This document shows, piece after piece, positions 1 to 64,000 of a stretch of 64,000 nt of DNA. A model generated the notes under the pieces. That model searched no databases and was not told the origin of the DNA. It saw nothing but the letters and a program-made list of their open reading frames with translations. The position numbers were made by a program, and so were the translations under genes. Each line of letters opens with the position of its first letter. Position 1 is the first letter of the stretch. The DNA is from an uncultured Actinomycetota bacterium (GTDB lineage Bacteria; Actinomycetota; Actinomycetes; Actinomycetales; Dermatophilaceae): contig CAVYRN010000013.1 in assembly GCA_963771015.1 (NCBI GenBank), forward strand, positions 25,211-89,210, in the 5' to 3' direction.

Positions 1-238
1 CGAGTCGGCCGACGATCTCGGCGAGCAGGTCGGCGTTCGAGCCGCGCCCGAAGGCCGCGTCGAGGTCGACGAGATGGAGCCACTGGGAGCCCTGCTCCTG
101 CCAGGCGAGCGCCGCCTCGACGGGGTCACCGAACTCGCCGCCACTGCCGGCCACGCCCTGGACGAGCTGGACGGCTCGCCCGTCGGCGACGTCGACCGCC
201 GGGAGCAGCTCGAGGACGGGGGCGGCGGCGGTGCTCAC
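1..238 (-). CDS. hisA: Phosphoribosyl isomerase A (HisA/PriA), 5' part only; gene runs off the window start
   Basis: Hand translation of the minus strand from GTG at 236-238 gives [28 protein letters not shown]...[16 protein letters not shown], a HisA/PriA N-terminal signature. It lies directly downstream of hisH. It is missing from the ORF track because the window edge cuts it. Confidence 0.8.
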
Positions 239-269
239 GGGATCTGCTCCAGGGTGGTCGGATGGGCGG

Positions 270-911
270 TCACAGCGACCGCACCCAGTTCGCGAGAAGG
301 GCGAGTCCGGCGTCGCCGGACTTCTCGGGGTGGAACTGGGTGGCCGCCAGCGGACCGTTCTCGACGGCGGCGACGAACGGGTTCCCGTGGGTCGCATAGG
401 TCACCAGGGGCGCCTGTCCGGCGAAGCTGCCGGTGGGCACGGGCATCGTCCACTCGGCCACCGCATAGGAGTGGACGAAGTAGAAGCGCTCGTCGGCGAC
501 GCCCTCGAACAGGGCCGAGCCGGCCGGCACGTCGACGAGCGACCACCCCATGTGGGGGACGACCGGAGCCTGGAGCCGGGTCACCGTCCCGGGCCACTGC
601 CCGAGCCCCTCCTGCGGGGCCTCGCTCGGCTCGGTGGACCCCTCGAACATCACCTGGAGTCCCACGCAGACCCCGAGGACCGGGCGCCCCCCCGCCAGAC
701 GCAGGTCGACGACCCGCGGGCCGTCGGCCGCCCGGAGCCCGACCATGCAGGCGTGGAAGTTGCCGACGCCGGGGACGAACAGCCCGTCAGCGGCCAGCGC
801 CGCATCGACATCGGCGGTGAGGATGACCTCGGCCCCGACCCGTTCGAGGGCGCGCACGGCCGACCGTACGTTCCCGCTGCCGTAGTCGAAGACGACGACC
901 CGTGCGCTCAC
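270..911 (-). CDS. hisH: Imidazole glycerol phosphate synthase, glutamine amidotransferase subunit HisH
   Basis: This is the C-terminal 213 aa of ORF 270..1463: [13 protein letters not shown]...[10 protein letters not shown]...FVHSY...FHPEKS. The GTG start at 911 overlaps the upstream stop (GTGA). The N-terminal part of the track ORF is Arg/Pro-rich and not credible. Confidence 0.9.
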
Positions 912-1540
912 CTGGCTCCCCCGCCGAGCTCGGCGCGATGTACCGCGTCGTCGGCGACGAGTGCGTCGAAGGTACGAACGGACCGCTCGGTGGGCTCGAC
1001 GATCCGGTCCTCGGGCGAGGGGCCCCTGAGGAGGAGATCCTCCCCGGGCAGGCCGAGCAGGCGGATGACCTCGACAAGCATCTCGATCGGACGGCCCGAG
1101 GGGTTCTTGACGGTCGTGACGATGGCGCCCGGCCGGGTCCTGGCCCCGGCGGCCGCGATGAGCTGGTCGGGGGCCAGCAGCGGCAGGTCCGGGGCGCGCC
1201 GGATCCCGTGCCCGGGCTCCCAGACGAGCCATCGCTGGTCGCGGCGCATGCCCTTGGGCTGGACCGCGATGACCCCGCGGCTCTTCATGACGAAGAACCC
1301 GAGCGACGGGCGGGCGCCGCCGGGCGCCGGACGTGCCGCGAGCATCTCGAGGCCCACGTCGTAGGGCGCGGTGCTTCGGGCCCGCTCCTCCGCGACCGTC
1401 ACGCCGGTCCACCCCTTGGCCAACGGGGTGAGGTGGGTCGCCACGAGTCCCCGGCGGGCCCACCGGGCCACCCGCTCGGGACGGCCGTGGACGAGGAGGA
1501 GGCCGAGCGCGGCGTCGGAGTCGTGGCCGTCGGTGCCCAT
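908..1540 (-). CDS. Conserved hypothetical protein inserted between hisB and hisH (210 aa)
   Basis: This is the C-terminal 210 aa of ORF 908..1894, starting at ATG 1540 (MGTDGHDSDAALGLLLVHG...), 4 nt after the hisB stop. Third-position GC is high. I recognise no family. Confidence 0.55.
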   Translation of the reverse strand: MGTDGHDSDAALGLLLVHGRPERVARWARRGLVATHLTPLAKGWTGVTVAEERARSTAPYDVGLEMLAARPAPGGARPSLGFFVMKSRGVIAVQPKGMRRDQRWLVWEPGHGIRRAPDLPLLAPDQLIAAAGARTRPGAIVTTVKNPSGRPIEMLVEVIRLLGLPGEDLLLRGPSPEDRIVEPTERSVRTFDALVADDAVHRAELGGGAR

Positions 1541-1544
1541 GGCT

Positions 1545-2168
1545 CTAGAGCGCGCCCTTGGCACTGGGGACGCCGCCGACCCGCGGGTCGAGCGCGACGG
1601 CCGTCCGCAGTGCTCGGGCCAGCGCCTTGAACTGTGCCTCGACGATGTGGTGGGGGTCGCGGCCGGCGAGGACCCGCACGTGGAGGGCGACTCCGGCGTT
1701 GGTCGCGAACGACTCCAGGACGTGGCGGGTGAGCGAGCCGACGTAGCCGCCGCCGATGACGACGTATGCCTGTCCCTCCGGCTCGCCGGTGTGGACGACG
1801 TAGGGTCGGCCGGCGACATCGACGACGGCCTGGACGAGCGCCTCGTCGAGCGGGACGGTCGCGTCGCCGAACCGGGTGATGCCGCGCTTGTCACCGAGCG
1901 CCTCGGCGACGGCCTGGCCGAGAACGATGGCGACGTCCTCGACGGTGTGGTGGGCGTCGACCTCGAGGTCGCCGGTCGCGCTCACCTGCAGGTCGATGAG
2001 GGAGTGCTTGGCGAGGCTGAGGAGCATGTGGTCGTAGAAGGGCACCCCGGTGCTGACCTCGCCCCGCCCGGAGCCGTCGAGGTCGACGGTGACCAGGACC
2101 TTGCTCTCGGAGGTCTCCCGGCTCAGGGTGGCCGTCCGGTGCGCGCCAGTGGTGGCGTCGACGCTCAC
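1545..2168 (-). CDS. hisB: Imidazoleglycerol-phosphate dehydratase
   Basis: Full 207-aa ORF with the HisB motifs [25 protein letters not shown] and DLDGSG. It overlaps hisC by 4 nt. Confidence 0.93.
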
Positions 2169-3286
2169 GATGCTCCCTCCTTCGCCGGGTCCGACACGAG
2201 CTCGCCAAGCGCGTCAAGGAACCTCGTGGTTTCCTCAGGCGTACCTGCCGTAACACGAAGATAGTGGGAAATGCCCACATCTCTCACGAGAACACCACGA
2301 TCAAGCAGGTCGAGCCATGCCGAGTGGCTGTCCGCGAGGCCGCCGAAGAGGACGAAGTTCGCGTCACTCGGGACCGGCTCGAGCCCGAGCGGCGGGAGCG
2401 CCTCGACGATTCGGTCGCGCTGCTCCTTGATGACGCCGACCGTGTCGAGCATCGCGTCGGCGTGCCGGAGCGCGGCCAGCGCGACGGCCTGGGTCAGCGA
2501 GGACAGGTGGTACGGCATCCGGACCAGCCGCAGGGCGTTGACGAGCTCGGGGTCGGCCGCCAGGTAGCCGAGCCGGCCCCCGGCGAGAGCGAAGGCCTTG
2601 CTCATCGTCCGGGTGACGACGAGCCGCGGACGCCCCTGCAGGAGGGTGAGCGCGCTCGGCGTCCCGACCCGGGCGAACTCGGCATACGCCTCGTCGACGA
2701 CGACGACGGCCCGAGGCGCCGCCTCGTACACCGCCTCGACGACCTCGAGGGACAGCGCGGTCCCGGTCGGGTTGTTCGGGGAGCAGAGGAAGACGATGTT
2801 GGGGTCGGCGTCCCTGGCCTGGCGGGCCGCCGACTCGGGGTCGAGGTCGAACCTGCCGCCGCCGGGCACGCCGCGCAGGCCGTCGACCCAGCCGGTGCCG
2901 CTCGTCGAGGTGATGATCGGGTGCATCGAGTAGGCCGGGGTGAACCCGAGGGCCACCCGTCCGTTGCCCCCGAACGCCTGGAGCAGGTGGAGCAGGACCT
3001 CGTTGGACCCGTTGGCCGCCCAGACCTGGTCGGTCGCGATCGCCGTGCCGGACCGGGACAGGTATGCCGCGAGCGCCTCGCGCAGGGAGGTGAAGTCCCG
3101 GTCGGGATAACGGTTGAGGCCGGGGGCGATGGCCGCGACGCTGGCGACGATGTCGGCGACGACCTCGCTCGGCACGGGGTAGGAGTTCTCGTTCGTGTTG
3201 AGGGCCACCGGCACCTCGAGCTGGGGTGCGCCGTACGGCGTGAGGCCGCGCAGGTCCGGGCGCATGAGGTCGTCGATCTGGCTCAT
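2165..3286 (-). CDS. hisC: Histidinol-phosphate aminotransferase
   Basis: 373-aa ORF with class-II aminotransferase features (NENSYP, NPNNPTG-like [20 protein letters not shown]-lysine motif) in his operon context. Confidence 0.92.
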
Positions 3287-3307: not shown

Positions 3308-4639
3308 TTAGCCCAGCTCGGGTAGGCGGGCGATGATCGCCTCGCCGTGGGCCGGAAGATCCTCGGCCCGGGCCAGCGTGACGACCCTCTCGCCGACCTC
3401 GCGCAGTGCCGCCTCGGTGTAGTCGACGACGTGGATGCCGCGAAGGAAGGACTGGACCGACAGCCCGCTGCTGTGGGTGGCACTTCCGCCGGTCGGCAGC
3501 ACGTGGTTGGAGCCCGCGGCGTAGTCACCGAGGCTCACCGGGGCGAACGGGCCGACGAAGATCGCCCCGGCGTTGCGCACCCGGGCGGCGAGCGCAGCGG
3601 CGTCCCGGGTGTGGATCTCGAGGTGCTCGGCGGCATACGCGTCGACGACGGCCAGCCCGGCCTCGATGTCGTCGACGAGGACCACCGCCGACTGCGGCCC
3701 GGACACCGCCTCGGCCACCCGCTCGGTGTGCTTCGTCGTGGCGACGCGGCGGTTCAGGGCCTCGGTGACGGCCTCGGCCAGCTCGGCGCTGTCGGTGACG
3801 AGGACGGCGGCGGCCATCGGGTCGTGCTCGGCCTGGCTGACGAGGTCGGCGGCGACGTGGTCCGGGTCCGCGGTCTCGTCGGCGAGGATGGCGATCTCGG
3901 TCGGCCCGGCCTCGGCGTCGATGCCGATGAGCCCCTTGAGGAGCCGCTTGGCGGCGGCCACGTAGATGTTGCCCGGCCCGGTCACCATCCCGACCGGCTC
4001 GCACTCGACCGCCACCCCGCCCGCCTCGTCGGCGAACCCGTATGCGAAGGCCGCCACCGCCTGGGCCCCCCCGACGGAGTAGACCTCGTCGACGCCGAGC
4101 AGGGCGCAGGCGGCGAGGACCGTCGGGTGCGGCCAGCCGCCGTGGTCGCGCTGCGGCGGGGAGGCGACGGCGATCGAACCGACGCCGGCGATCTGGGCGG
4201 GGACGACGTTCATGACGACGCTGCTGGGGTAGACCGCGAGCCCACCGGGGACGTAGAGGCCGACGCGGTCGACGGGAACCCACCTCTCGGTGACCGTCCC
4301 GCCCTCGGTGACGATGGTCGTCGTGTCGGTCCGGCGCTGGTCGGCGTGGACGAGCCGGGCGCGGCGGATGGCCTCCTCGAGGGCGTCGCGGACCGCGGGG
4401 TCAAGAGCCTCGACGGCAGCGGCCATGACCTCCGCCGGGACCCGGAGGGCCGGCGGACGGACGCCGTCGAGACGCTCGGCGGCGGCATACAGCGCCGCGG
4501 CGCCGCGGTCCTGGACGTCGTCGCAGATCGGCCGGACGGCGGCGAGCGCCGCCTCGACGTCGAGCTCGGCTCGGGGCAGCACGCCGCGCAGCTCTCGGCG
4601 GCTCAGCCGACGGCCGCGCAGGTCGAGCACGGGGATCAT
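3308..4639 (-). CDS. hisD: Histidinol dehydrogenase
   Basis: 443-aa ORF with GPGNIYV, SQAEHD and HLEIH-type HisD motifs. It is the first gene of the his cluster. Confidence 0.93.
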
Positions 4640-4733: not shown

Positions 4734-7700
4734 TCAGGAACCGTAGAAGACCTGTTCGGCCGCCTGCCGGGCCCGGCGAGCCACCCGGCGGTACCGCTCG
4801 GCGAGCTCCTGTCCCGAACGGGGCGGCAGCCCGAGGATCCGGGCGATCCCCTCCGCGTCGCGCAGGTCGGTCGGCAGCGCCTCGATCGTGCGGCTGCGGA
4901 AAAGGGTCCCCGCGTTGCGCATCGCCGACGCGAGCCGCCACGCCTCGCCGAGGGCGGCGGCCGAGGCCTCGTCGATGAGACCGAGCCTCTCGGCCGCCGC
5001 GAGCCCGTCGAGGGTCGAGGTCGTGCGCAGTTCCGGATGAGCGTCGGCGTGGCCGAGCTGGACCAGCTGGACACACCACTCGACGTCGGAGAGCCCGCCG
5101 TGCCCGAGCTTGAAGTGGGTCTTGCGGTCGGCGCCGCGGGGCAGCCGCTCGGCCTCCATCCGGGCCTTGAGGGTCCGGATCTCGCGGACCTGCTCCGGGG
5201 CGAGGCCGCCCTTCGGCCACCGGATCGGGGCGACGAGCCGGAGGAACCGCTCGCCGAGGTCCGCGTCCCCGGCGATCGGCTTGGCACGCAGCAGCGCCTG
5301 CGCCTCCCAGACCAGAGACCACCGGTCGTAGTACTGCCCGTATGCCGCGAGCGAGCGGACGAGGGGCCCGCTCTTGCCCTCCGGGCGCAGGGCGGCATCG
5401 ACGTCGAGCTTCCGGTCCGGGCCGGCCGCCCCGAGCAGGGCGATGAGCTCCTTGACGACCTCGGTCGCCTGCTCCTGGGCCGCGGTGTCGTCGGCCCCGG
5501 GCACCGGGTCGTGGACGAAGATGACGTCGGCGTCCGAGCCGTACCCGATCTCGCCCCCGCCGAGCCGGCCCATGCCGACGATGAGCACCCGCGTCACCGG
5601 CGGCGCGCCGGTCCGGGCCTCGAGGCCCCGCAGGCACACGTCGAGCGTCACCTGCAGCAACGCCCCGGTGAGGTCGGTGAGCGCGGCGCCCACCTCGTCG
5701 AGCGTGATGACACCGGTGAGGTCGGCGACGGCGACCCGGAACAGCTCCGAGCGCCGGATGGCGCGGGCCGCGAGCACCGCCGAGGCCGGGTCGTCCTTGC
5801 GCCCGGCGGCGGCCCGCATCCGCCGCTCGATCTCACCTCGGCCACGCGGCTCGACCCCGCCGGGGTCGCCGAGGAACTGGACGCACTCGGGCGCGGACTC
5901 GAGCAGGTCCGCGGCATACCGGCTCCGGGCCAGGGTGTGCGCGAGGTTCTCCGCCGCCTGGCCCTCGTCACGCAGCAGCCGGAGGTACCAGTGGGTCGAC
6001 CCCAGCTCGTCGCTGATCCTCCGGAAGGCGAGCAGCCCCGCATCGGGGTCGGCCTCGTCGGCGAACCAGCCGAGCATGACCGGCAGCAGCTGGCGCTGGA
6101 TCGCCGCCCGACGGCTCAGCCCGTCGCTCAGTGCCTTGAGGTGTCCGAGCGCACCCCGCGGGTCGGCGTACCCGAGGGCCGACAGCCGCTCACGGGCCGC
6201 CTTCGACGTAAGTCGCACCTCCGTCGTGCTGAGCCGCGCGACGGCGGACAGGAGGGGCCGGTAGAAGATCCGCTCGTGCAGGCGGCGCACCTCGCGGGCC
6301 TGGGCGCGCCACTCGTGCACGACGTCGGCCGCCGGGTCGCGACGGAAGCCGACGGCCCGGCCGAGCCGCCGCAGGTCGGCGTCGGCGGTCGGCATGAGGT
6401 GGGTGCGCCGCAGTCGGTGGAGCTGGATCCGGTGCTCGAGGGTCCGCAGGAACCGGTATGCCGCGTCGAGGACCGCCGCGTCGTCCCGGCCGACGTAGCC
6501 GCCCCGGCTCAGCGCCGCGAGCGCCTCGAGTGTCGTGCGCGACCGGAGGGAGTCGTCGGCCCTGCCGTGGACGAGCTGCAGCAGCTGGACGCTGAACTCG
6601 ACGTCGCGCAGACCGCCGGGGCCCAGCTTGAGCTGCCGGTCCGCCTCCGCGGCCGGCACGTGCTCCTCGACCCGGCGTCGCATCGCCTGGACGTCGTCGA
6701 CGAAGTTCTCCCGTGAGGCCGCCTGCCACACCATCGGCTGGACGACGGCGAGGTACTCCTCACCCAGCTCACGGTCGCCGGCGAGCGGGCGGGCCTTGAG
6801 GAGCGCCTGGAACTCCCAGGTCTTCGCCCAGCGCTCGTAGTAGGCCCGGTGGCTCGACACCGTCCGGACGAGCGGCCCCTGCTTCCCCTCGGGTCGCAGG
6901 GCGGGGTCGACCGGCCACAGCGAGCCGGCCGCGGTCGAGGCCGAACAGACCCGCATGAGCCGGGTGGCCAGGTCGGTGGCGACGGCCAGGGCCTCCTCCT
7001 CGGCCACGCCCTCGGCCGGCGCGGCGACGAAGATGACGTCGACGTCGCTGATGTAGTTGAGCTCTCGGCCACCGGCCTTCCCCATGCCGATGACGGCCAA
7101 CCTGCAGCGGCCCGCCCGCTCCTCGCCGACGGCCTCCTCGGCGACGACGAGCGCCGCCTCGAGCGCCCCCTCGGCGAGGTCCGCGAGAGCGGCGGACGCC
7201 GCGGGCATCCCGGCCACCGGGTCGGCGCTGGTGAGGTCGAGCGCGGCGATCCCGAGGAGCTGCCGTCGGTACTCGACCCGCAGGGCGTCCATCGCCTCGG
7301 CCTCGGGGAGCCCTCGGACCGCCGCGACGAGGGCGGCGACCCGGTCCGGCGCACCGATCGGCTCGGCCCGGGCGGCCGAGGCCCAGTGGCCCGGGTGGGC
7401 GACGAGGTGGTCGGCGAGCGCCGTCGACCCGCCGAGGACGGCCAGGACCCGGTCGCGGGGCGCGCCGGACGCGGTGAGCGCCGCGGTGAGCCCGGCCTGG
7501 GCGTCAGCGTCCGTCCGGACCGCGGCCTCCATGAGCCGGACCAGGGCGAGCAGCGCCTGGTCGGGGTCGGCCACCTCGACGAGCCCGCGCGCGAGCCCGT
7601 CGGACTCGACCCGCTCGAGGTCGTGGATGAGCGGGGCGATGACCTCCTCGTCGAGGAGGGCGCGGGCGCGGCCGGGGTCGGCGAACCCGAGACGAGTGAG

Positions 7701-11014: not shown

Positions 11015-11087
11015 CGAACCACTCCTTCGTCGAGCCGGGCCGGACGCATGCGCCCGTCCTCCCGAGCTGCTGCCTAGACTCCACCGT

Positions 11088-13819: not shown

Positions 13820-13866
13820 GACCCCACCGTATGCCGAGCGCCCGGCCGCTCGCGCGGCCCCCGATG

Positions 13867-50848: not shown

Positions 50849-50859
50849 CCCACGCGTGA

Positions 50860-50901
50860 CCCGGTATGCCGCCCGCTCACCGGAGCGGGCGGCATACCGG
50901 G
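50860..50901 (+). other. Perfect 19-bp, 4-nt-loop hairpin between gluB and gluC
   Basis: cccggtatgccgcccgctc (50860-50878) pairs with gagcgggcggcataccggg (50883-50901). Each arm carries one copy of the octamer. Confidence 0.7.
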
Positions 50902-50928
50902 TCGGCCCGCTCTTCGAAGGAGACCCTC

Positions 50929-54966: not shown

Positions 54967-55074
54967 GGCGACGAACCATCGCTGCCCGATCTGGCGCACC
55001 ACCCCTCCTTCCCGCACGACGACGTCGACAACAGGCCGAGCCCATGCGGTGGTCGCATGGGCTCGGCCGACGGC

Positions 55075-55551: not shown

Positions 55552-55857
55552 TGCGAACTCCTTCTCGGTGGGCCGGGTCGCCGTGAGAATGTTCAGCTCA
55601 GGTGCCGGTCTTGGTATGGGGCGAGTATCGAAACTTCCTTGCATTGGTAAAGATAGGGCTCGCCCCGCGGGCGGATGCGCGTCCCCGGAGAAGGTGGCTG
55701 AACAGCCGACAAGGGCCTAGCCTGAACGCGGTCAGGCCCATCACCACGTCAGCCGACCGGGACCCGCGGGCCCGGTAGCGGGCCGGCACGAGGGCGGGTC
55801 GGGGAGGGACCTGGAACGACGCGGGCCCCGAACCGCATGGCGCGGTCGGGGCCCTAT

Positions 55858-55893
55858 CGCTCCCCCGGTTGGACTCGAACCAACGATCCGTAT
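55858..55893 (-). other. tRNA 3'-fragment (T-arm plus acceptor 3' strand): candidate att site at the island border
   Basis: The minus strand reads cggatcGTTGGTTCGAGTCCAACCGGGGGAGcg, which is T-stem/loop plus CGGGGGA plus G. No matching 5' acceptor strand, D-arm or anticodon arm follows. A72/G73 would fit a tRNA-Gln-like gene. Confidence 0.5.
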
Positions 55894-56019
55894 TGTTGGA
55901 CTCCTGTGGACACAAGAGGCAGAAGTGGCCTCTGACCTGCGAGAACGTTGGCTGAGACTACGACTCCAACAGTCCGCCAAGTGACGACAGAGGCCACAAA
56001 CCGCCGTACGATCCGATGC

Positions 56020-57255
56020 ATGGCCGATGCAAAATCGCCCCGCCGCCGGTTCGGGCAGCTGGCGCGGATGCGGTCCGGACGGTGGCAGGCACGCTTCACC
56101 GTCCCGCTGGGCCACCCCTCGGGACGTGGCGGTCAGACGATCACCGCGCCGCACACGTTCGAGCCGACGACGTACGGCAAGGAGGCCGCAGGCGACTGGC
56201 TTCGCGACGAGGAACGACGTCTGGTCGCCGAAGGGGCGGCATGGGCCACCCTGGCGGAGCACGCCGCGGCCGAGCGGGCGCAGGCCGAGCGCGCGGCCAT
56301 GGTCACCTTCGCCGAGTTCTCCGCGACGTGGCTTCGGACGCGTCGGACCAAGAACGGACCATTGCAGGAGTCCACGCGACGTGGCTACCGGCTCTGGCTC
56401 GACAAGTACCTCCTGCCGACCCTGGGCGACCTGCCCCTGGACGAGATCACCCCGAGCGTCATCCTGCGGTGGTACGAGGACGCCCTCCCTCACGACAAGC
56501 CGAAGACGACGCGTGAGTGCTACGCCCTGGGGTCGGCCATCATGCGGACGGCGACGGCCGCGGACGGCATGCTGGCTGGAGCCGTGAACCCCTTCAAGAT
56601 CGACGGTGCCGGCTCCATCGGTGCCCGCTCACGCGCCCGTACGGAAGTGCTCGACGACCACGACCTGCGGGTGATCATGTCGACCATCCGGCCCGAATGG
56701 CGGGCCATGGTCGCGCTCGCCCTCGGATGTGGCCTGCGCTTCGGCGAGATCATCGCGCTCCGCCGGTCCGACATCGACCTGAAGGCGAACTCTCCCGTCG
56801 TCCGCATCACTCGCGCCGTGGGCACCGGTCCCGGCGGCCGTCGCTACGAGAAGGACCCAAAGAGCGCCGCCGGAAAGCGGGACCAACGGATACCGGCCTC
56901 CGTCGTCGATGCGTTGGCCGAGCACCTCCGCACCTACGTCACCGGTAGGGACGGGCTACTCTTCCCCGCCCCGGACGGCGGGTGGCTCTCCGAGACCCGG
57001 TTCCGGAAGGCGTCCGGAGGCTGGCTCGCTGTCCGTGAAGCGGTCGGTCGCCCGGTCAACTTCCACGACCTGCGAGCGACCGGCGCCACGCGGATGGCGC
57101 AGCGGGGGGCGCACGTCGACGAGGTCAAGGTGTTCCTCGGGGACAGCTCGACCCAGGCCGCCGAGCGCTATGTCAGAGCAACGCAGAGCCGGATGGACGA
57201 CCTCACCGCGGCCGCGTTCGCAACCGTCGACTTCGGAACCGCTCGCGAACGGTGA
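56020..57255 (+). CDS. int: Tyrosine-type site-specific integrase
   Basis: ATG at 56020, 411 aa. It has an SAM-like N-terminal core-binding domain and the catalytic residues in context: GLRFGE (Arg), HDLRATGAT (His-x-x-Arg), ERY (Tyr). Confidence 0.88.
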   Translation: MADAKSPRRRFGQLARMRSGRWQARFTVPLGHPSGRGGQTITAPHTFEPTTYGKEAAGDWLRDEERRLVAEGAAWATLAEHAAAERAQAERAAMVTFAEFSATWLRTRRTKNGPLQESTRRGYRLWLDKYLLPTLGDLPLDEITPSVILRWYEDALPHDKPKTTRECYALGSAIMRTATAADGMLAGAVNPFKIDGAGSIGARSRARTEVLDDHDLRVIMSTIRPEWRAMVALALGCGLRFGEIIALRRSDIDLKANSPVVRITRAVGTGPGGRRYEKDPKSAAGKRDQRIPASVVDALAEHLRTYVTGRDGLLFPAPDGGWLSETRFRKASGGWLAVREAVGRPVNFHDLRATGATRMAQRGAHVDEVKVFLGDSSTQAAERYVRATQSRMDDLTAAAFATVDFGTARER

Positions 57256-57309
57256 ACCGAAACGGACCGCTACGTGCGGTCCGCGCAGCGGCCGTCGAGA
57301 CCTTCCGGG

Positions 57310-57777
57310 TCAGCGTTCCCACGGTGGTCGCCACTGCCTCGTTGTACGGCGGTCCAGGGCTGCGACCAGCTCGGCGACCGCGGGGGTGAGGGCGGGCAGG
57401 TCGCGGTCGTAGATCCGCCCGGTATCGACGCGGCGGGTGAGGTCTGCGAGGACCTCGACGAACTCTCCGACGCTGCCGGGCAGCACCGGGACCGGGATTT
57501 CTGTGGTGTGGTGCTGGACCACGGTGACGGTCTTGACGGTCTCGACGATGCGGTCCTTGACCTCGACCGCGGCGAACCCGTTGGCGGCCGCGCGGCGCTG
57601 TTCCCAGGCCCGGTGACGGCACGCGGGCGAGCACCATTTCGGCACCCGCCCCCGCGCCGGGACGAGCACGTCCTGGCCGCACCAGCCGCAGGCGACGCTC
57701 TGTCCTGGAGCGCGCGGGGACGACCGTCTCCCGGGACTGGCCGGCCCCTTGTCAGTTGTGTCTGATCGGCCGCTCAT
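57310..57777 (-). CDS. Zinc-ribbon protein, paralog 1 of a divergent pair
   Basis: ATG at 57777, 155 aa. It contains ACGWCGQDVLVPARGRVPKWCSPACRHRAWEQRRAAANG. The upstream 48 codons of the track ORF are doubtful. Confidence 0.6.
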   Translation of the reverse strand: MSGRSDTTDKGPASPGRRSSPRAPGQSVACGWCGQDVLVPARGRVPKWCSPACRHRAWEQRRAAANGFAAVEVKDRIVETVKTVTVVQHHTTEIPVPVLPGSVGEFVEVLADLTRRVDTGRIYDRDLPALTPAVAELVAALDRRTTRQWRPPWER

Positions 57778-57913
57778 GGCCACCTCCCCTGGTCGGCCCT
57801 CGCCGGTCGTTGTCGTCACAACGATAGGACACGCACCGGGGGTGCAAGAGGTGTGTGGAATTCGTCGTGACAGGTTATGGTGCGTCGGTGGCGAGGAGCG
57901 GGGGAAGCGGCTG

Positions 57914-58300
57914 ATGGTCACGGGAGCGCAGGCTGCGGGTCGTCGGGTGCCGGGTCAGGTGCTGGCGTGTGGGTGGTGCGGGCAGCCGGTCACGGTGAAG
58001 GCACGGGGGCCGGTGCCGAAGTGGTGCTCGGCGTCGTGTCGGCAACGAGCCTGGGAGGCGTCCCGGGCCGCGGCCTCGGGGAAGGCCGCGGTGCGGGTGG
58101 TCGACCGGGAGGTGCTGGTGGTCCCTGGGGACGCGGCCGGCTGGGTCCAGCACCTGGGCCTGCTCGCCCGTCAGCTGGGGCAGGGGCCGGCTGTGGTCGC
58201 CGACCACGACCTCGACGGCGTCGCTGACGCGCTCGACATGGTCAGCGACGCGCTGGCCGAGCGGGTGCGGTGGCGGGGCAGGTTCGAACCCTGGGAGTAA
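57914..58300 (+). CDS. Zinc-ribbon protein, paralog 2 of a divergent pair
   Basis: ATG at 57914, 128 aa. It contains ACGWCGQPVTVKARGPVPKWCSASCRQRAWEASRAAASG and is collinear with paralog 1. Confidence 0.6.
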   Translation: MVTGAQAAGRRVPGQVLACGWCGQPVTVKARGPVPKWCSASCRQRAWEASRAAASGKAAVRVVDREVLVVPGDAAGWVQHLGLLARQLGQGPAVVADHDLDGVADALDMVSDALAERVRWRGRFEPWE

Positions 58301-58431
58301 CGCCGCGACGGTCCTTCGGCGAGCCCTCTCGACGACGAGTGGCGGACTCATCTCACCCGGGCAGCCGCCAGCCAGACCACTACTGACATGTGGGACACGT
58401 GATCTCGGCCCCGAGTGTGGCCGTGGCGGCG

Positions 58432-58728
58432 TCAGGCGGTGGCTTCGAAGTGCAGCCGTAGGCCGAGCGCGTGGGCGACTTTCAGGACCGTGGCCAACGA
58501 GGGGTTGCCGTCCGCGGAGAGGGCCTTGTACAGACCTTCGCGACTCATCCCCGCCTCGCGAGCGATCTGGCTGAAGTTGCGGGATCGGGCGATCGCGCCG
58601 AGGGCGGCGGCGATGACCTGGGGGTCGTCGTCGGCGTCGTCGAGGACGGCCTCGAGGTAGGCGGTGACGTCCGCGAAGCTGTTCAGGTAGTCGGCGCTGT
58701 CGAAGGGGGTGAACGTCTCGTCGCTCAT
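58432..58728 (-). CDS. higA: HigA-type antitoxin (HTH, addiction-module antidote)
   Basis: ATG at 58728 overlaps the toxin stop (ATGA). The product contains NFSQIAREAGMSREGLYKALSADGNPSLATVLKVAHALG. Confidence 0.75.
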   Translation of the reverse strand: MSDETFTPFDSADYLNSFADVTAYLEAVLDDADDDPQVIAAALGAIARSRNFSQIAREAGMSREGLYKALSADGNPSLATVLKVAHALGLRLHFEATA

Positions 58729-59030
58729 GGTCGGCTTCCTCTCCATTCGTCAGCGATCTGGTGCGCGGCCCGGATGTCGGCGTCCTGGCTGGACTTGTCA
58801 CCGCCGGTGAGCAGCAGGATGACCCGGTCGCCGTCCTTCAGGTAGTAGATGCGGTAGCCGGGGCCGTAGCTGATCCGCAGTTCGGAGACGCCGCGGCCGA
58901 CGGGTTTGACGTCTCCGGGGTTGCCGGCCGTCAGCCGGTTGATCCGGACCAGTACCCGTGCCCGGGCGCGGGGGTCTTTGAGTCTTCTGAGCCATCGGTC
59001 GAAGGTGCCCGATCGGATGACCTCAACCAT
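58725..59030 (-). CDS. higB: RelE/ParE-superfamily toxin (addiction-module killer, HigB-like; toxin gene first)
   Basis: 101-aa ORF with FDRWLRRLKD..ARARV..RINRL..GNPGDVKPVG.GVSELRI..GPGYRIYY, the killer-protein pattern. Confidence 0.75.
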   Translation of the reverse strand: MVEVIRSGTFDRWLRRLKDPRARARVLVRINRLTAGNPGDVKPVGRGVSELRISYGPGYRIYYLKDGDRVILLLTGGDKSSQDADIRAAHQIADEWRGSRP

Positions 59031-59146
59031 GTGTTAACTGTAGTTGACATCTCTGGCTGCGGCAACACGCGACCCGTCATCCAAGCCGACGTGGACGACG
59101 TAGGTCGACCGGCGACCGAAGACGCAGCCGGTCGGCCTTCACATCG

Positions 59147-59617
59147 TCATGGCAACTCGGGTTCTGGGTGCGCTCGCTCGAACTCCTGGACGGCGCTCCC
59201 GTCGATCAACGCCTCCGCAGCAAGCCAGCTCACTGCTCGGCCCACTGCCCGGGCATCCCTGAAGCCGTGCCAAACAGAGATCAGGTCCGGATGGCGCTGA
59301 TAGAGCTCGTTCTTGAAACGCCGGAACGCGCCCGTGCCCCGCAGAGCAAGGTGCAGGGCCTCGCCGGCGGCCCTGTCACTGATGCCGTCCGCGAAGTCGG
59401 CCATGTCCTGGTACCAGACGTATGGAGGAAGGGGGCCGATAAGAATGAGATCCAACTCGTCGAGCTCGAGGGGGTTCTCACCGTCCACGCCGGTGTCGCT
59501 GGTCCAGAACGCGATCTCGCCGGTCCTTGGGTCGATCAGCCACCGATGCTCGTAGTCGGTCTGGTCCGCCAACGCAGTCGCGATCTCCTGAACATCGATC
59601 GCGTTCAGGTCGAGCAT
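59147..59617 (-). CDS. UPF0158-family protein
   Basis: ATG at 59617, 156 aa. GTGAFRRFKNELYQRHPDLISVWHGF is the family's signature region as I recall it. Confidence 0.6.
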   Translation of the reverse strand: MLDLNAIDVQEIATALADQTDYEHRWLIDPRTGEIAFWTSDTGVDGENPLELDELDLILIGPLPPYVWYQDMADFADGISDRAAGEALHLALRGTGAFRRFKNELYQRHPDLISVWHGFRDARAVGRAVSWLAAEALIDGSAVQEFERAHPEPELP

Positions 59618-59700
59618 CGGATCAGCGTATGACGCCAGCCGGCCGCCCAACAGGCGGCGGTAGGGGAACTTTGATGGCCGAGCATCGAGGGTTTGCCAGC

Positions 59701-59982
59701 TCACAGGGGGCGGTAGGCCTCGCTGCGGTGATCGATGCGCAGCACGACGACCTCACCGCGCTCCTCGTTGATGCGGTACAGAACGCGGTAGGTGCCACGC
59801 CGCGCTGAGTAGATGCCCGAGAGATCCCCCCGCAGCCGCTTGCCGACCCGGTGGGGGTTGTCCACCAGGGCCCCGGTGAGGAACTCGATCACGGCGACGG
59901 CCACGGCCTCGGGAAGGCCGGTGCGGATTGCGCGTACCGCCGGTGGGGTGAGGACCAGCTCGTAGGCGACAGGCGCAGTCAC
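59701..59982 (-). CDS. relE: RelE/ParE-family toxin
   Basis: 93-aa ORF with L.G.L.G.YSARRG.YRVLYRI.....VVVLRI.HR. It overlaps the antitoxin by 4 nt. Confidence 0.8.
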   Translation of the reverse strand: MTAPVAYELVLTPPAVRAIRTGLPEAVAVAVIEFLTGALVDNPHRVGKRLRGDLSGIYSARRGTYRVLYRINEERGEVVVLRIDHRSEAYRPL

Positions 59983-60245
59983 CGGCGCAGGGCGCGGACC
60001 GCGTCGACGCCGCGGACGACGTCACCGGCGGCATACGCCGCGTCCGCCTCGCGGATGTCCGCCAGGGCGGCCGCGTCGCTGAGGACGGCCAGGGTCTCCT
60101 CGAGCTCGGCCAGGTCCTCGGGGCTGATGATCACCGCGGCGGCACGCCCGTTGCGGGTCACGGTCACCCGGTCGTGTTCGCGCTCGACCCGGTCGACGAC
60201 ATCGCTGAAGTGGTCGCGGACCTCGCGCAGCGGCTCAACACTCAT
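59979..60245 (-). CDS. Phd/YefM-family antitoxin
   Basis: ATG at 60245, 88 aa. It contains REVRDHFSDVVDRVEREHDRVTVTRNGRAAAVIISPEDLAELEETL. Confidence 0.8.
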   Translation of the reverse strand: MSVEPLREVRDHFSDVVDRVEREHDRVTVTRNGRAAAVIISPEDLAELEETLAVLSDAAALADIREADAAYAAGDVVRGVDAVRALRR

Positions 60246-60350
60246 GGCCACAATTGTGGCGCCTTCCAAGGATCCTCGCAAGGCTGCGTATCGCGGCGAA
60301 GTGCAGCACCTTCAGCCGACGGGTGGACTGTCTCTTCGGGAGGCGGCGGG

Positions 60351-61200
60351 CTACGGCACTGCCCGGATGTCGGTCCAGGTCTGGGTTTCGCACTGGTGGT
60401 CGGTGTTGTTCCCGGCGCTCAGGATGGTGCCGTCGGCACGGAGGCCCAGGGTGTGGGTGGAGCCGGCTGCCACGGCGATGACATCGCGCCAATGGTGTAC
60501 GTCGCACTGGCCATGGGTGTTGTCACCCGTGGCCAGGACTCGTCCGGAGGCGGTGAGCGCGACGGTGTGGTAGCTGCCCGCGGCCACCATCTCCACGTCC
60601 CGCCAAGCCTCGACCGCGCACGCACCCATCGACCGGTCACCGGTCGCGGCGAGACGGCCGTCGGCGCGCACCCCGACCGTGTGCAGGTACCCCGCCGCGA
60701 TAGCGGTCGGCCCCGCCAGGTGTCGACATCGCACTGCCCCCGACGGTTGACACCCGCGGCCACCGCGGTCCCGTCGGCACGGACCCCGACCGAATGCCAG
60801 TCACCACAGGAGATGGCCACGACCTCACGCCAGGGGTCCACATCGCACGCACCCTCGGCGGTGCGACCAGCAGCAACGACGGTGCCGTCACCGTGCAACC
60901 CCAGGGTTCGCCGCCACCCGCGGCCACCGCCACGACGCCCCGCCAGGAGCCCAGGTCGCACTGCCCGTCACCGTTCCACCCCGTCGCCACCACCGTGCCG
61001 TCCCCGCGCAGCCCCACCGTGTGCGAGCGTCCCGTGTTGGCGGCGGCATGCACGTTGCCCGCAGCAACCGCCACGACGTGCTCCCACCGGCCGACCTCCA
61101 GCTCCCCAGCGGCGCCGCCGCCCACCGCCACGACCCTGCCGTCGCACCGCCGCCCCACCGAGTGACGCCTCCCGGCCGCCAGAGCTGTCCGAGGTCGCAT
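60351..61200 (-). pseudogene. RCC1-repeat (beta-propeller) protein gene split over three frames
   Basis: ATG at 61200 follows GAGGAGGAGAG. About six to seven repeats of the type VAAG..HTVGLR.DGTVVA.G.N..GQC.V..W continue from ORF 60637..61380 into 60419..60961 and then into 60351..60734. This implies two frameshifts, near 60900 and 60730. Confidence 0.65.
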
Positions 61201-61494
61201 CTCTCCTCCTCGCCCGGCACCAAGATCGCCCATCGCATTCAACACCGCCGCGCCCACGCCGTCCCCCAGCTGACCGGCCGGCCCCAGGCCGAGCCGCCCA
61301 GCACGCGGCGGAGTGGGGCAGGCGCGAACCGCCCGACGCTGATGAGCCCGAACCGGGGGTGCCGCCGCGACTGTCAGCACATGGTCCGCCCGCTTTGGGA
61401 GGGGGTGCGCGTTGTCCTGGATGTGGTGGCCGTCACCGTAGCTCGTCGTCGCCAGCCCCCAGGGATAGCGTGGTGACTGGGTCTGGGAGGCGGT

Positions 61495-62330
61495 ATGTGG
61501 ACTCGAACAGGGGCAGCGAGGCGACGCGGCCGCCTGCGCGCCATCCCCGCATCGATCGTGGGCGCAGCGGTCCTGCTGGTCGGCTGTGGGACGTCTGGCT
61601 CCGCGCCCAGTTCCCCGGGTGCTCAGTCGTCCACCTCGGCGGTCCCGGCCTGGGACATCGTCCTGATGGGCGACTCGGTGTGGCCGCGGGGGACCTTCCG
61701 CGGCGGCTCGAGGATGAGCTCAAGGTGAGTCTGGTCATGCACGACTGGATCAACCCCGACCTCAGCACGTACAACGGGAACGGCGGAGAGCGCAGCGGTG
61801 ACCTCCTGGTCCGGCTGCGCACCGACGAGAACCTGCGCCGGGACCTGCGCGGGGCGGAGATCATCGGCTTCGACGTCCCGACTGGCCTGACCCTTGATGT
61901 ATGCACCGTCAACCCCAGCATGGCAACCGCCGCCGAGGTGAAGACCTGCATGGACACGGCGGTGACGCGGTACCAGGACGACGTCACCGCGATCTTCGAC
62001 GAGATCGTGGCGCTGCGTGACCCGGCCGATGCGATCATCCGCGCGACCACGGTCTGGCAGTTCCTGATGCCGACCTTCCAGAGGGCCGGCACCTACGACG
62101 TCATGCGGCCCAGGTGGCAAGCCATGAACCAGGCCGTCGTGCGCGCCGCCGCCCAGCACCACATCACCGTCCTGCCCGCCTATGACACCTTCTGCGGCCC
62201 GGACGGCAGCCGAGACCCCGTCGCGGCCGGCGACGTGTCGGGCGACGAGAAACACCTCAGTGCGCAAGGTATCGACCGCTTCGTCGACCTGTTCATGGCC
62301 TCGGGCCTGCCCGCCGTGGGGGCGCAGTAG
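61495..62330 (+). pseudogene. SGNH/GDSL hydrolase lipoprotein gene with one frameshift
   Basis: The signal peptide, lipobox LLVGCG and block I IVLMGDSVW are in frame 61495..61728. The rest of the domain (…VMHDWINPD…, ending DEKHLSAQG) is in the frame that ends at 62330. The shift lies at the G-run near 61685-61695. Confidence 0.6.
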
Positions 62331-62448
62331 GAGCCACGACGCTGCTCCCATCTGCCGCCGCCGCGATCGCCGACTGGCGGCGGAGTGGGTCAGCCCGTTG
62401 GCGACCCGGGCCCCCGACGACCGCCTGCTACCGGTCGTGACCTGTCCG

Positions 62449-63174
62449 TCACGTCTGCGAAGTGCCCAGGCGCGTCAGTTTGTCCAGATCCCGTTTGCAG
62501 AACCGATGGTGGGCCCATTCCTCGTTGAGTGCGGTGCCGAGGCATTGCCGCACTGTCCGCCCCTTGGCGTACGGGGGCCACCTGTCGTCGTCCGGGACCG
62601 GGGCGATGTCCGCGAGCCGACCGGGTGTGACCTCGGCCAGCCATGCCTCGATCTCGGTGGCCTGCCGGACTCGTACGGCAAGCACCTCGTCCAGGGCCGG
62701 TCGGGCGGACGGGTCGAGCTCGTCCTCCTGGCCCATGACCGACGGCGGGCCAAGTCCCATGGCGGTGAACGGCTCGGTGAGCCCGAGCACGCAGCGTCGG
62801 AACCAGGAGTCGTGCACGAAGACGAGGTGGCGCAGGGTCTCGACCATCGACCACTCGCCGTCGACACCGCGCAGTTCGCTGTGCTCGGGCATGGACCGGA
62901 CCCGTTCGATGGTGGTGGCCCACTCGTCCCTCAGTCGCCGCCAGGCCTCGCGCAGGTCCTCCGGCTCATCGGAGCGGATCAGCAGTCGCACCGGATGACG
63001 GCGGTCGAGCTCCGCCTCGACGTAGGCCGTCACCTCGACCCCGTTGACCACAAGACCGGTGACCAGGCCGTCGATCTCGGCGCCCTTCATGACGACGCCG
63101 ACCATCCGGGCACCGCTCAGGTCGCATTCGCGGAACTCCGCTCCGGTCAGGTCCTCGTCGTGGAAGCGTCGCAT
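62449..63174 (-). CDS. DinB-family protein with N-terminal pentapeptide repeats
   Basis: 241-aa ORF. The N-terminus EDLTGAEFRECDLSGARMVGVVMKGAEIDG is pentapeptide-like. It is followed by a DinB-like four-helix region with His ligands (LRHLVFVHD, EEWAHHRF). Confidence 0.65.
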   Translation of the reverse strand: MRRFHDEDLTGAEFRECDLSGARMVGVVMKGAEIDGLVTGLVVNGVEVTAYVEAELDRRHPVRLLIRSDEPEDLREAWRRLRDEWATTIERVRSMPEHSELRGVDGEWSMVETLRHLVFVHDSWFRRCVLGLTEPFTAMGLGPPSVMGQEDELDPSARPALDEVLAVRVRQATEIEAWLAEVTPGRLADIAPVPDDDRWPPYAKGRTVRQCLGTALNEEWAHHRFCKRDLDKLTRLGTSQT

Positions 63175-63228
63175 CCAGACAGCGTAGGTCGCACGGCAGA
63201 CGCCCCACGGCCCTGGACCTGTGGGGGC

Positions 63229-63534
63229 GTGGCATCTCTCCCAGCCACAGACGACTCGCTGTTGGTGCGGACCGACTTCGGCGACCAGTCGGCCTGGGTG
63301 CGTACTCGCGAGTCAGCCCTTGCCCCGATCGAGGATGGGTTCCGCGCCTACGTCGCCGTGGTCGACGAGCACCCGATTCACGTCGTCGACCTCAGCGGCG
63401 AGCAGCGCCCACCGTTCAGGTGCGCGGCGGCTGCGCTGTGGTCGGTCGACAACCACCTGAACCTCGCCAATCTGGACGGGGAAGAGTCTGCCTCCGCAGT
63501 CAGCGACGATGGCGTGCACCGGGGTTTCGGCTGA
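63229..63534 (+). CDS. Hypothetical small protein (DUF6924-like pattern)
   Basis: In-frame GTG at 63229, 101 aa. SLLVRTDFGDQSAWVRT...AYVAVVDE...FRCAAAALWSVDNHLNLANLDGEE...DDGVHRGF resembles a family I only half remember. The rest of the 450-aa track ORF is antisense to DinB. Confidence 0.4.
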   Translation: MASLPATDDSLLVRTDFGDQSAWVRTRESALAPIEDGFRAYVAVVDEHPIHVVDLSGEQRPPFRCAAAALWSVDNHLNLANLDGEESASAVSDDGVHRGFG

Positions 63535-63610
63535 GCGGATGCGCGCGCTTCGCGGCGGAAGGGGCTACATCGACGCGCTGGACTCTCGTTCAAGGGCCGC
63601 GCCGAAGGCG

Positions 63611-63943
63611 TTAGAGGTCCAGCAGCAAAGCGAGGGTCTCTCGACCTCGCCGAGTACTACGGGGGCGATATTTCCGGAGCGGTGCTGAATACGCGTGGTG
63701 GCTACAGAACGCACGTGCTGGCACTGCGCCGAGGAACGCTCTGCAAGACGGTTGCCGCGATCAGGGCCGATGACCACTTCGGTGCTGCTGGACGGATGGT
63801 GCGGGTCAGCGGCACCACCTGCACGACGTTGGGTCCACCCCCCAGAACCCGTGCGGCGGTGACGACGACTGCGGCGGCAGCCCCGCCTCGCTACCGGCCG
63901 GAAAGCCGAGGTCGAGCTCAACGACGTCACCCGGCGTCAGCAT
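63611..63943 (-). pseudogene. mazF: MazF/PemK-family toxin gene with at least 3 frame changes
   Basis: By hand translation, the gene reads through four frames in turn. (1) MLTPGDVVELDLGFPAGSEAG. (2) AAAAVVVTAARVLGGGPNVVQVVPLTRTIRPAAP. (3) EVVIGPDRGNRLAERSSAQCQHVRSVATTRIQHRSGNIAPVVLGEVER. (4) LALLLDL, ending at stop TAA 63611-63613. Confidence 0.5.
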
Positions 63944-64000
63944 CGAGCAGCCTGTCTCATCCTGAGTGAGCTCTCGGCCAGGTCGCGGCCCATGCCGTCC
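63937..64000 (-). CDS. Possible antitoxin (MazE-like) 3' end; gene runs off the window
   Basis: An open frame ends in TGA at 63937-63939, overlapping the mazF ATG (ATGCTGA). Only about 20 codons are visible and they carry no diagnostic motif. Confidence 0.25.
   Translation of the reverse strand, partial: DGMGRDLAESSLRMRQAARC

Follow-up and report, generated by a model that had tools for sequence, protein, structure and literature searches.

We analysed a 64-kb stretch of a contig (CAVYRN010000013.1, positions 25,211 to 89,210) from an uncultured Actinomycetota bacterium of the Dermatophilaceae; this whole stretch is referred to below as the window. The 8-base word CGGCATAC (reverse complement GTATGCCG) is ~30-50x over-represented in the window and in related actinobacteria. 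It is best explained as a “self” word that runs throughout the genomes of the Intrasporangiaceae/Ornithinimicrobiaceae clade (Micrococcales). Comparison with related loci showed that a lineage-specific recognition system, acting in trans and at the level of DNA, generates the word and keeps it in place wherever coding and other constraints leave room. As to what that system does, spread of the word by biased uptake plus recombination, in the manner of known uptake signals, is quite possible though somewhat short of probable.

Excess and coding context of the word

An exact search of the window found 50 copies of CGGCATAC/GTATGCCG, 26 on the plus and 24 on the minus strand, in line with the original prediction of at least 49 copies split about 27 to 23. 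The same search reproduced the single copy reported for the last 10 kb: 49 of the copies lie within 2680-53533 and the remaining one is at 60029. Dinucleotide-preserving shuffles of the window (n = 100) contained 1.02 copies on average and 4 at most. The expectation under an order-3 Markov model is 3.2 copies, and no other 8-mer of the window deviates as strongly as CGGCATAC (z = 24). Shuffling synonymous codons, which keeps the proteins and the codon usage unchanged, gave 2.4 ± 1.5 copies (maximum 9) versus the 37 coding copies observed. The claim of hyper-abundance, which had been set against a rough estimate of chance, thus holds under shuffled, Markov and codon-aware nulls. The window is a housekeeping region with a G+C content of 71.8%.

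The unit is exactly eight bases long, as GGCATA occurs 60 times in the window, GGCATAC 56 times and CGGCATAC 50 times. Over 379 copies pooled across loci, the flanks show only a weak preference for a purine at position -1 and for a base other than T at position +9. In the window, no marked enrichment is seen for any of the 24 one-mismatch neighbours. The extension CGGCATACCGG occurs there 11 times.

Genes were called with a codon log-odds model. Thirteen of the 50 copies are read as [NCG]-GCA-TAC (Ala-Tyr) and 21 as TAT-GCC-G (Tyr-Ala, the opposite-strand reading). Two more are read as GGC-ATA-CCG, which uses the very rare Ile codon ATA, and one as GGT-ATG-CCG, so that 74% of the window copies are intragenic. 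Eleven copies are non-coding, and two overlap the ATG starts of map (11086) and of a fasR-like gene (34351). These assignments bear out the earlier statements that the word forces rare codons (GCA-TAC, TAT-GCC and GGC-ATA-CCG), that it also occurs in intergenic DNA and that it spans two start codons. Of the two positions that had been given for GGC-ATA-CCG, 24229 is right, whereas the copy placed at 46491 is in fact at 46483.

The choice of codon in the window depends on context. Ala-Tyr is written GCA-TAC in 13 of 25 cases after an NCG codon versus 4 of 45 elsewhere, and Tyr-Ala is written TAT-GCC in 23 of 40 cases before a G-initial codon versus 2 of 22 elsewhere. Because the codon varies with its neighbour, the cause acts on DNA, as had been proposed, and the 37 coding copies against 2.4 in the synonymous shuffle agree with this. 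Among window sites able, by their amino acids, to hold the word, 13 of 33 [APST]-A-Y sites and 21 of 38 x-Y-A-[ADEGV] sites are filled. A cause at the level of protein or translation, either selected Ala-Tyr/Tyr-Ala codon pairs or an RNA motif, could account for the 34 of 37 coding copies that encode one of these dipeptides, but we consider it extremely improbable and rejected it. Codon choice hinges on the last bases of the preceding codon or the first base of the following one, non-coding DNA has three times the density of the word, copies occur in both orientations relative to transcription (100 sense and 152 antisense), and outgroups use ordinary codons for the same dipeptides.

Distribution among relatives

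For comparison we used 80 loci of ~22 kb, retrieved by the AceE protein from species-representative genomes (numbered L001 and so on). The closest relatives of the window are two Danish soil metagenome-assembled genomes (MAGs), with 91-92% AceE identity, followed by Knoellia (85%). Most of the 25 relatives with at least five copies have the word as their highest-ranked 8-mer, at 0.3-1.5 per kb around aceE. Carriers include Knoellia, Terrabacter, Humibacillus, Phycicoccus elongatus, Candidatus Phosphoribacter, several Dermatophilaceae and some Lapillicoccus, Ornithinibacter and Ornithinimicrobium; under the NCBI taxonomy these are Intrasporangiaceae and Ornithinimicrobiaceae. Approximately no copies were found in Dermacoccaceae, Luteipulveratus, Kytococcus, Kineococcus, Propionibacteriaceae, Arthrobacter, Brevibacterium, Microbacteriaceae and Actinoplanes. 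When loci are pooled, the strict ingroup has 790 copies per Mb and the outgroups have 23 per Mb. Even the pentamer CATAC occurs only 0-1 times per 22 kb in the four outgroups checked, versus 11-43 times in the ingroup.

The conservation in sister genomes that had been suggested as a check was found. In the two closest relatives, 50% and 73% of the window copies are kept at orthologous sites, versus 25-29% for phase-matched control 8-mers. Copies shared across the family include those at 16364, 26716 and 33916. Positions also turn over between close relatives, and relatives without the word at a site mostly show CGGCCTAC, CCGCCTAC or CGGCGTAC. At the aceE site at 29197, for example, most relatives have CGGCCTAC or CCGCCTAC, L007 has CCGCATAC, and the word itself occurs in scattered lineages. 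Thus, gains recur, and from different neighbours that include transversions.

Occupancy of permissive synonymous sites was computed on whole loci; aceE alone has too few such sites. In the pooled ingroup, 35% of the Ala-Tyr and 60% of the Tyr-Ala sites are filled, compared with 2-3% in the outgroups, and three Phosphoribacter-type genomes reach 80-100%. The permissive Ala-Tyr/Tyr-Ala contexts are themselves 1.3-1.7x commoner per codon in the ingroup; uptake sequences shape proteomes to a comparable degree (PMC2817400).

Dialects and loss

The locus of MFD02840.bin.3.7 (L007) has 11 copies of CCGCATAC, four of GCGCATAC and two of CGGCATAC. It holds CCGCATAC at orthologous sites where its relatives hold CGGCATAC, and the change from one to the other is synonymous in both main frames. 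Dialect or relaxed forms were detected in L007, L008, L016, L031, L037 and L040, and Lapillicoccus and some Ornithinimicrobium loci are mixed, with AGGCATAC or CGCCATAC. The constant part of the dialects is GCATAC, and the first three bases vary. The odd top 8-mers of L046 and L016 were considered as further dialects and rejected, as they are ordinary tandem repeats: an 11-bp array, (CCCGTACTCGA)n, at 14220-14300 of L046 and (GGGGAA)n at 18566-18620 of L016.

The locus of OH_HDB_167 (L011) has no copy in 15.9 kb. It groups with Humibacillus and Terrabacter in a neighbour-joining tree of AceE, and its DNA identity to them (81-82%) equals that between those two genera. Every site that its relatives conserve has changed in L011, to CGGCGTAC, ACGCGTAC and similar words. 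The switch in L007 and the loss in L011 are each concerted across unrelated loci; therefore, maintenance of the word depends on one lineage-specific trans-acting recognition system, not on local functions.

L011 is a natural knockout inside the motif-bearing clade. Strict, dialect and lost lineages at similar divergence are natural “experiments” for identifying the recognition factor.

Orientation, hairpins and spacing

The word has no strand skew: the two orientations stand at 26:24 in the window, and orienting 25 loci by aceE gives 170:162. The original prediction would have turned to Chi or the FtsK-orienting polar sequences (KOPS) had there been a strong replichore skew, and this redirection is therefore not needed. 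Like Chi and KOPS or the SpoIIIE recognition sequences (SRS), CGGCATAC is a clade-specific 8-base word enriched in the core genome. Those words have a strong replication-direction skew and few-fold enrichment, whereas CGGCATAC is unskewed and 34-50-fold enriched. We thus rejected an oriented motif of the Chi or KOPS type.

In the pooled loci, density is 1.69 per kb in non-coding and 0.53 per kb in coding DNA, and the non-coding density is equal across tandem, divergent and convergent spacers. Among 380 copies, the pairs that lie within 60 bp of each other comprise 18 inverted and no direct pairs, so 36 copies (9.5%) are in inverted pairs. Four such pairs are in the window (9348/9361, 30820/30843, 34329/34351 and 50864/50890), and those at 30.8 and 50.9 kb are in terminator-type hairpins, as had been reported from the letters alone. 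Both have uninterrupted 21-bp core stems inside longer imperfect helices. The predicted folding energy is -54.6/-58.2 kcal/mol (z about -6.5) for 30808..30862 and -53.7 kcal/mol (z -8.2) for 50854..50910; the z-scores for both range from -6.3 to -8.2. A simple terminator scan called none of the motif hairpins, because they lack T-tails. A motif pair lies directly after aceE in five genera, including L004, L015, L019 and L039, and the remaining hairpin sequence differs in each.

An element of the repetitive extragenic palindromic (REP) or miniature inverted-repeat transposable element (MITE) type was rejected, given that the flanks are unrelated and most window copies are inside genes rather than confined to intergenic DNA. 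As a separate observation, the hairpin at 50854-50910 sits within an ABC-transporter operon, and REP elements have the same operon position in malE-malF and hisJ-hisQ of Escherichia coli.

Within one orientation, the spacing of copies in the window is more regular than expected by chance (coefficient of variation, CV, 0.57 and P = 0.0016 for plus; CV 0.60 and P = 0.004 for minus). Within 2680-53533 each orientation recurs at ~2 kb intervals, and the closest same-orientation copies are at least 417 bp apart. Of the 45 transitions between neighbouring copies, 34 change orientation (P = 0.001), and same-orientation copies avoid each other. The alternation is weak elsewhere (z about 2), in loci that are not mutually independent. 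The per-orientation regularity and the alternation point to an orientation-specific reading of the word. Even spacing of the plus and minus uptake signal sequences (USS) in Haemophilus was noted by Karlin, as cited in PMC1939737.

Scarcity in probably acquired DNA and in a phage

The last 10 kb of the window hold one copy versus ~9 expected (P = 0.001). This motif-poor region carries a tyrosine integrase (56020-57255) and has low codon scores. It also encodes an HI1420-type addiction-module antitoxin (58432-58746), overlapped by a small open reading frame (58725-59030). The region is probably acquired DNA, and its part from ~53700 to ~61000 is a probable integrated element with no adjoining tRNA. 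Tetrasphaera phage TJE1 (57.7% G+C), on record as infecting a host of the Intrasporangiaceae clade, has two copies in 49 kb and leaves all 17 of its permissive sites unfilled. The scarcity of the word in acquired DNA rests on these two cases, the integrase region and the phage. A scan of viral contigs for inverted pairs gave matches that chance could explain; in most of them just the seeded pair matched, within unrelated G+C contexts. A plasmid search with the integrase of the motif-poor region found no plasmid from this family.

Artefact and contamination

An artefact would consist of base-calling or polishing errors at a modified CGGCGTAC, as the original prediction had allowed, or of Illumina adapter remnants. 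A change from G to A at position 5 is synonymous in both main frames and would yield exactly the rare codons observed, the nearest relatives are MAGs assembled as long contigs, and CGGCGTAC occurs at 0.42x the outgroup level in the pooled ingroup. Nonetheless, we regard an artefact as next to impossible. Isolate genomes and megahit/SPAdes short-read contigs (as judged by contig names) share the word at orthologous sites, which excludes a long-read consensus artefact. The depletion of CGGCGTAC (~80 per Mb) is too small to supply 790 copies per Mb, and in the window CGGCGTAC is not depleted at all (8 observed versus 3.5-6 expected). Relatives with another word at an orthologous site mostly have CGGCCTAC or CCGCCTAC, that is, transversions and not G-to-A changes, and some lineages carry a dialect or have lost the word. 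Consensus errors at a methylated site are thus refuted.

GTATGCCG is contained in what we take to be the Illumina P7 adapter, but the adapter extension GTATGCCGTCTTC does not occur in the window. As no copy runs on into adapter sequence, adapter contamination was rejected. GTATGCCG also shares the hexamer ATGCCG with what we take to be the AT-DUS dialect of the DNA uptake sequences (DUS) of Neisseria, the sole likeness in sequence to those words; the 10-base DUS core GCCGTCTGAA is absent from the window. Since neither overlap extends into the adapter or the DUS core, both are treated as coincidence.

What maintains the word

The original prediction had pointed out a resemblance to uptake sequences. 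This is strengthened by the clade-specificity, the dialects and the inverted pairs in hairpins, and further by the lack of skew, the non-coding excess and the scarcity in the integrated element. Published traits of DUS and USS include dialects with a constant core, inverted pairs at terminators, ~10% of copies in inverted repeats, a non-coding excess, no orientation bias and absence from genes without homologues in relatives (PMC3630211, PMC1939737, PMC2817400). By this analogy, CGGCATAC could well be an uptake-signal-like self-DNA word, although we lean slightly short of affirming it. Fragments bearing the word would be preferentially taken up or recombined. Alleles that gain it would spread by homologous recombination as a molecular drive, and alleles that lose it would be replaced. 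Protein selection would restrict the word to synonymous Ala-Tyr/Tyr-Ala codings and non-coding DNA, and in hairpin terminators a copy on one arm would force a copy on the other. Newly acquired DNA would have yet to accumulate the word. If the recogniser changed its specificity the genome would follow, as in the CCGCATAC dialect, and if it were lost the word would decay to preferred codons. Natural transformation reportedly occurs in Micrococcus luteus, also of the Micrococcales (PMC4322843), where competence is under the control of starvation or the stringent response.

Several points weigh against spread by uptake. We found no literature report of competence in these genera, and the window contains no competence, pilus or DNA methyltransferase gene (its methyltransferases match generic methyltransferase-domain families, not DNA-specific ones). 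We know of no receptor for CGGCATAC. Every comparative feature would also follow from any strong intracellular drive or selection that depends on a trans-acting factor. In the pooled ingroup, all 24 one-mismatch variants are at ~1x the outgroup level while the perfect word is at 34x; together with the near-saturation of permissive sites in some genomes, this argues for a force sharper and stronger than we would expect of an uptake-bias drive. The alternation of orientations and the mutual avoidance of same-orientation copies are not predicted by orientation-independent uptake. The word also needs the non-preferred codons GCA, TAT and ATA, whereas known uptake sequences favour frames with preferred codons (PMC2817400). 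It is because competence is unreported and mismatch copies are unenriched, and because of the near-saturation, the rare codons and the apparent effect of orientation, that we hold to an uptake-type word only tentatively.

The word could instead be driven by repair, as proposed for the highly iterated palindrome HIP1 of cyanobacteria. An orphan methyltransferase or mismatch correction of the very-short-patch type would convert near-cognate heteroduplexes to CGGCATAC, without uptake. This is conceivable, if rather unlikely. Such a drive would suit the sharp specificity just described and the filling of 80-100% of permissive sites in some genomes, and the concerted dialect switch and loss fit one enzyme gained, changed or lost. 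Elhai set out a repair-type model for HIP1, in which alternate HIPs track alternate methyltransferases (PMC4390886). However, CGGCATAC is gained from several neighbours, including transversions (CGGCCTAC and CCGCCTAC), rather than through a single kind of mismatch. No consistent shift is seen for the deamination-type neighbours TGGCATAC, CGGTATAC, CAGCATAC and CGACATAC, whose ratios to the outgroup are 1.05-2.8 on very small counts. Phage TJE1 is not enriched, though phage may evade host repair. Moreover, the known very-short-patch system, Vsr of E. coli, has a 5-bp recognition site (CCWGG) and alters word frequencies only to a modest degree. A related proposal, to which we give a minor chance, is that a lineage-specific intracellular conversion enzyme writes the word by acting on near-cognate sites during repair or recombination, and not during uptake. 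Such an enzyme would prevail over codon preference, occupy as much as 80-100% of the permissive synonymous sites and alter how often the dipeptides are used. Its specificity would be mutable (the CCGCATAC dialect) or could be lost (OH_HDB_167), and an orientation-specific reading of the word would explain the alternation and the ~2-kb spacing per orientation.

Selection could also hold the density of a binding site for an abundant chromosome-organising or genome-maintenance protein. Candidates would be a nucleoid protein, a strand-discrimination or nicking repair signal, or an unskewed Chi-like signal for a helicase-nuclease. We consider this unlikely as well, although copies are better conserved than background, spacing is regular within each orientation, neighbours alternate and decayed copies are absent. 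Selection and a nucleoid role were argued for HIP1 by Xu et al. (PMC5861425), and even USS spacing was taken likewise by Karlin, as cited in PMC1939737. On the other side, ~0.8 sites per kb (thousands per genome if scaled) at a 34-50x excess is far above what is known of protein-site systems, and Chi and KOPS are skewed whereas CGGCATAC is not. One entire lineage has lost all its copies and shows no replacement for them, and positions turn over between close relatives. The alternation, too, is strong only in the window.

Relation to known words and significance

CGGCATAC is best filed with the hyper-abundant self-DNA words (DUS, USS and HIP1), though by sequence it belongs to none of those families. 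Like the DUS of Neisseriaceae, it is a short non-palindromic word at ~1 per kb that is family-specific, with constant-core dialects, no skew, a non-coding excess, pairs in terminator hairpins and a location in permissive parts of the core genome (PMC3630211). Unlike DUS, which are 10-12 bases long, it has eight bases, and its uptake role is a putative one. Its host is a Gram-positive actinobacterium, in which the type IV minor pilin ComP, the DUS receptor, is not expected.

The USS of Pasteurellaceae consist of a 9-base core and AT-rich flanks. As in CGGCATAC, their orientations are balanced, ~10% are in inverted repeats and spacing is even; they are mostly coding, occupy few frames, enrich the peptides that they encode and are missing from genes without homologues in relatives (PMC1939737, PMC2817400). 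In contrast, CGGCATAC has no extended flank signal and unenriched one-mismatch variants, and USS frames favour preferred codons whereas CGGCATAC forces rare codons at 72% G+C.

HIP1 (GCGATCGC) is likewise a hyper-abundant 8-mer (15- to 300-fold), conserved at orthologous sites and replaced by alternate words or lost in some lineages; its function is debated between repair drive, nucleoid structure and transformation (PMC5861425, PMC4390886, preprint 10.64898/2026.06.24.733823). HIP1 is palindromic, with known orphan methyltransferase sites, whereas CGGCATAC differs from its reverse complement GTATGCCG. We know of no methyltransferase for CGGCATAC.

A literature search by sequence returned only primers and adapters, and our searches turned up no mention of CGGCATAC in this actinobacterial family from soil and wastewater, nor of another uptake-type or hyper-abundant word there. 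To our knowledge, dense sequence-specific self-DNA words are established only in Neisseriaceae and Pasteurellaceae, with cyanobacterial HIP1 as an unsettled third case. Were these Gram-positive actinobacteria of high G+C content a fourth, independent case, the phenomenon would prove to be general. If CGGCATAC is an uptake signal, placing it on donor DNA could make intractable organisms transformable, including the dominant wastewater phosphate accumulators (Candidatus Phosphoribacter/Tetrasphaera). Whatever the mechanism, the word marks native versus acquired DNA, can aid the binning and taxonomic assignment of metagenomic contigs, and explains a puzzling use of rare codons.

Features of the window

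The genes of the window include hisC, hisD, glnE, glnA, panB, map, a metZ-type sulfhydrylase, aceE, a RubisCO-like gene, argG, a fasR-like regulator, fabD, fabH, acpP, a kasA/fabF-type gene, a carboxyltransferase and an ABC transporter. Its RNA genes are RNase P RNA, tRNA-Val and tRNA-Met. The copies of the word and the features associated with them are listed below.

Copies of the word and associated features, with window coordinates, strand of the copy and reading or remark (CDS, coding sequence)
Feature	Position	Strand	Reading or remark
Copy in hisC (2165-3286, -)	2680..2687	+	Tyr-Ala TAT-GCC
Copy in hisC	3062..3069	-	Ala-Tyr GCA-TAC
Copy in hisD (3308-4639, -)	3631..3638	+	Tyr-Ala
Copy in hisD	4483..4490	+	Tyr-Ala
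Copy in glnE (4734-7736, -)	5340..5347	-	Ala-Tyr
Copy in glnE	5912..5919	+	Tyr-Ala
Copy in glnE	6456..6463	-	Ala-Tyr
Inverted pair in panB (9348/9361), CGGCATACgacatGTATGCCG	9348..9368		Encodes T-A-Y-D-M-Y-A-A
Copy in panB	10021..10028	-	Tyr-Ala
Copy over map ATG start (GT-ATG-CCG)	11086..11093	-	
Copy in map	11488..11495	+	Ala-Tyr
Copy in metallo-beta-lactamase-fold gene (13169-13819, -)	13300..13307	+	Tyr-Ala
Non-coding copy just upstream of gene 13169-13819	13829..13836	-	
Copy in RNase II/R-like gene (14350-15804, -)	15790..15797	+	GGT-ATG-CCG
Copy in yaaA-like gene	16364..16371	-	Orthologous site filled in 10/12 aligned relatives
Copy in CDS 16639-17382 (-)	17013..17020	+	Tyr-Ala
Copy in rhodanese-like gene (18622-19035, -)	18718..18725	-	Ala-Tyr
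Copy in rhodanese-like gene	18993..19000	+	Tyr-Ala
Copy in bPH_2 protein gene (23228-24808, -)	23584..23591	+	Tyr-Ala
Copy in bPH_2 protein gene	24229..24236	-	GGC-ATA-CCG, very rare Ile codon ATA
Copy in alpha/beta hydrolase gene	25660..25667	+	Tyr-Ala
Non-coding copy, divergent spacer	26301..26308	+	
Copy in fdhD	26716..26723	-	Orthologous site filled in 7 relatives; CCGCATAC in L007
Copy in aceE	29197..29204	+	Ala-Tyr
Hairpin, convergent aceE / RubisCO-like spacer	30808..30862		Arms: 30820-30827 (-), 30843-30850 (+)
Copy in RubisCO-like gene	32226..32233	+	Tyr-Ala
Copy in argG	33916..33923	-	Filled in 11/17 aligned relatives; CCGCATAC in L007, L008
Inverted pair CGGCATAC-N14-GTATGCCG (34329/34351)	34329..34358		Upstream of and over fasR-like start codon
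Copy in fasR-like gene	35359..35366	+	Ala-Tyr
Non-coding copy, acpP / kasA-fabF-type gene spacer	38216..38223	-	
Copy in carboxyltransferase gene	40046..40053	+	Ala-Tyr
Copy in DUF3145 gene	41217..41224	+	Tyr-Ala
Non-coding copy	41800..41807	-	
Non-coding copy, 12 bases upstream of tRNA-Met	42217..42224	-	
Copy in weakly scoring predicted CDS 44036-44407 (-)	44339..44346	-	
Copy in thioesterase gene	45057..45064	+	Ala-Tyr
Copy in thioesterase gene	45541..45548	-	Tyr-Ala
Copy in pfkB kinase gene	46255..46262	-	Tyr-Ala
Copy in pfkB kinase gene	46483..46490	+	GGC-ATA-CCG
Copy in pfkB kinase gene	46843..46850	-	Tyr-Ala
Copy in FAD oxidoreductase gene	47719..47726	+	Tyr-Ala
Copy in FAD oxidoreductase gene	48638..48645	-	Ala-Tyr
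Non-coding copy, ABC ATPase / solute-binding gene spacer	49982..49989	+	
Hairpin, solute-binding / first permease gene spacer	50854..50910		Arms: 50864-50871 (-), 50890-50897 (+)
Final copy before motif-poor region	53526..53533	-	Ala-Tyr
Motif-poor region	53700..64000		1 copy vs ~9 expected
Lone copy in motif-poor region	60029..60036	+	Tyr-Ala

Three Knoellia loci and Ornithinimicrobium L031 share the non-coding copy at 13829..13836. In the window this copy lies ~105 bases downstream of the RNase P RNA (class A, 283 bits; 13941-14337, minus strand), directly before the next gene. A gene on the minus strand at 19283-20446 encodes a fusion of an RNase H-like domain (RVT_3/RNase_H) and a histidine phosphatase, and falls in the longest interval of the core region that lacks the word (19.0-23.6 kb).

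The RubisCO-like gene (30868-32253, minus strand), which is convergent with aceE, scored 884 bits on the NCBIfam ribulose-bisphosphate carboxylase model PRK13475. We take this model to represent the form II RubisCO type; such a gene was unexpected in a genome of Micrococcales. No phosphoribulokinase was identified among the window genes.

The arrangement CGGCATACAAATA recurs upstream of the fasR-like gene, at 34329-34358 of the window, 16060-16088 of L001 and 16051-16085 of L005, and both copies of the window pair are also present in L001. The second copy of the word in CGGCATACAAATA provides the ATG start of the fasR-like gene, and the arrangement may double as an operator.

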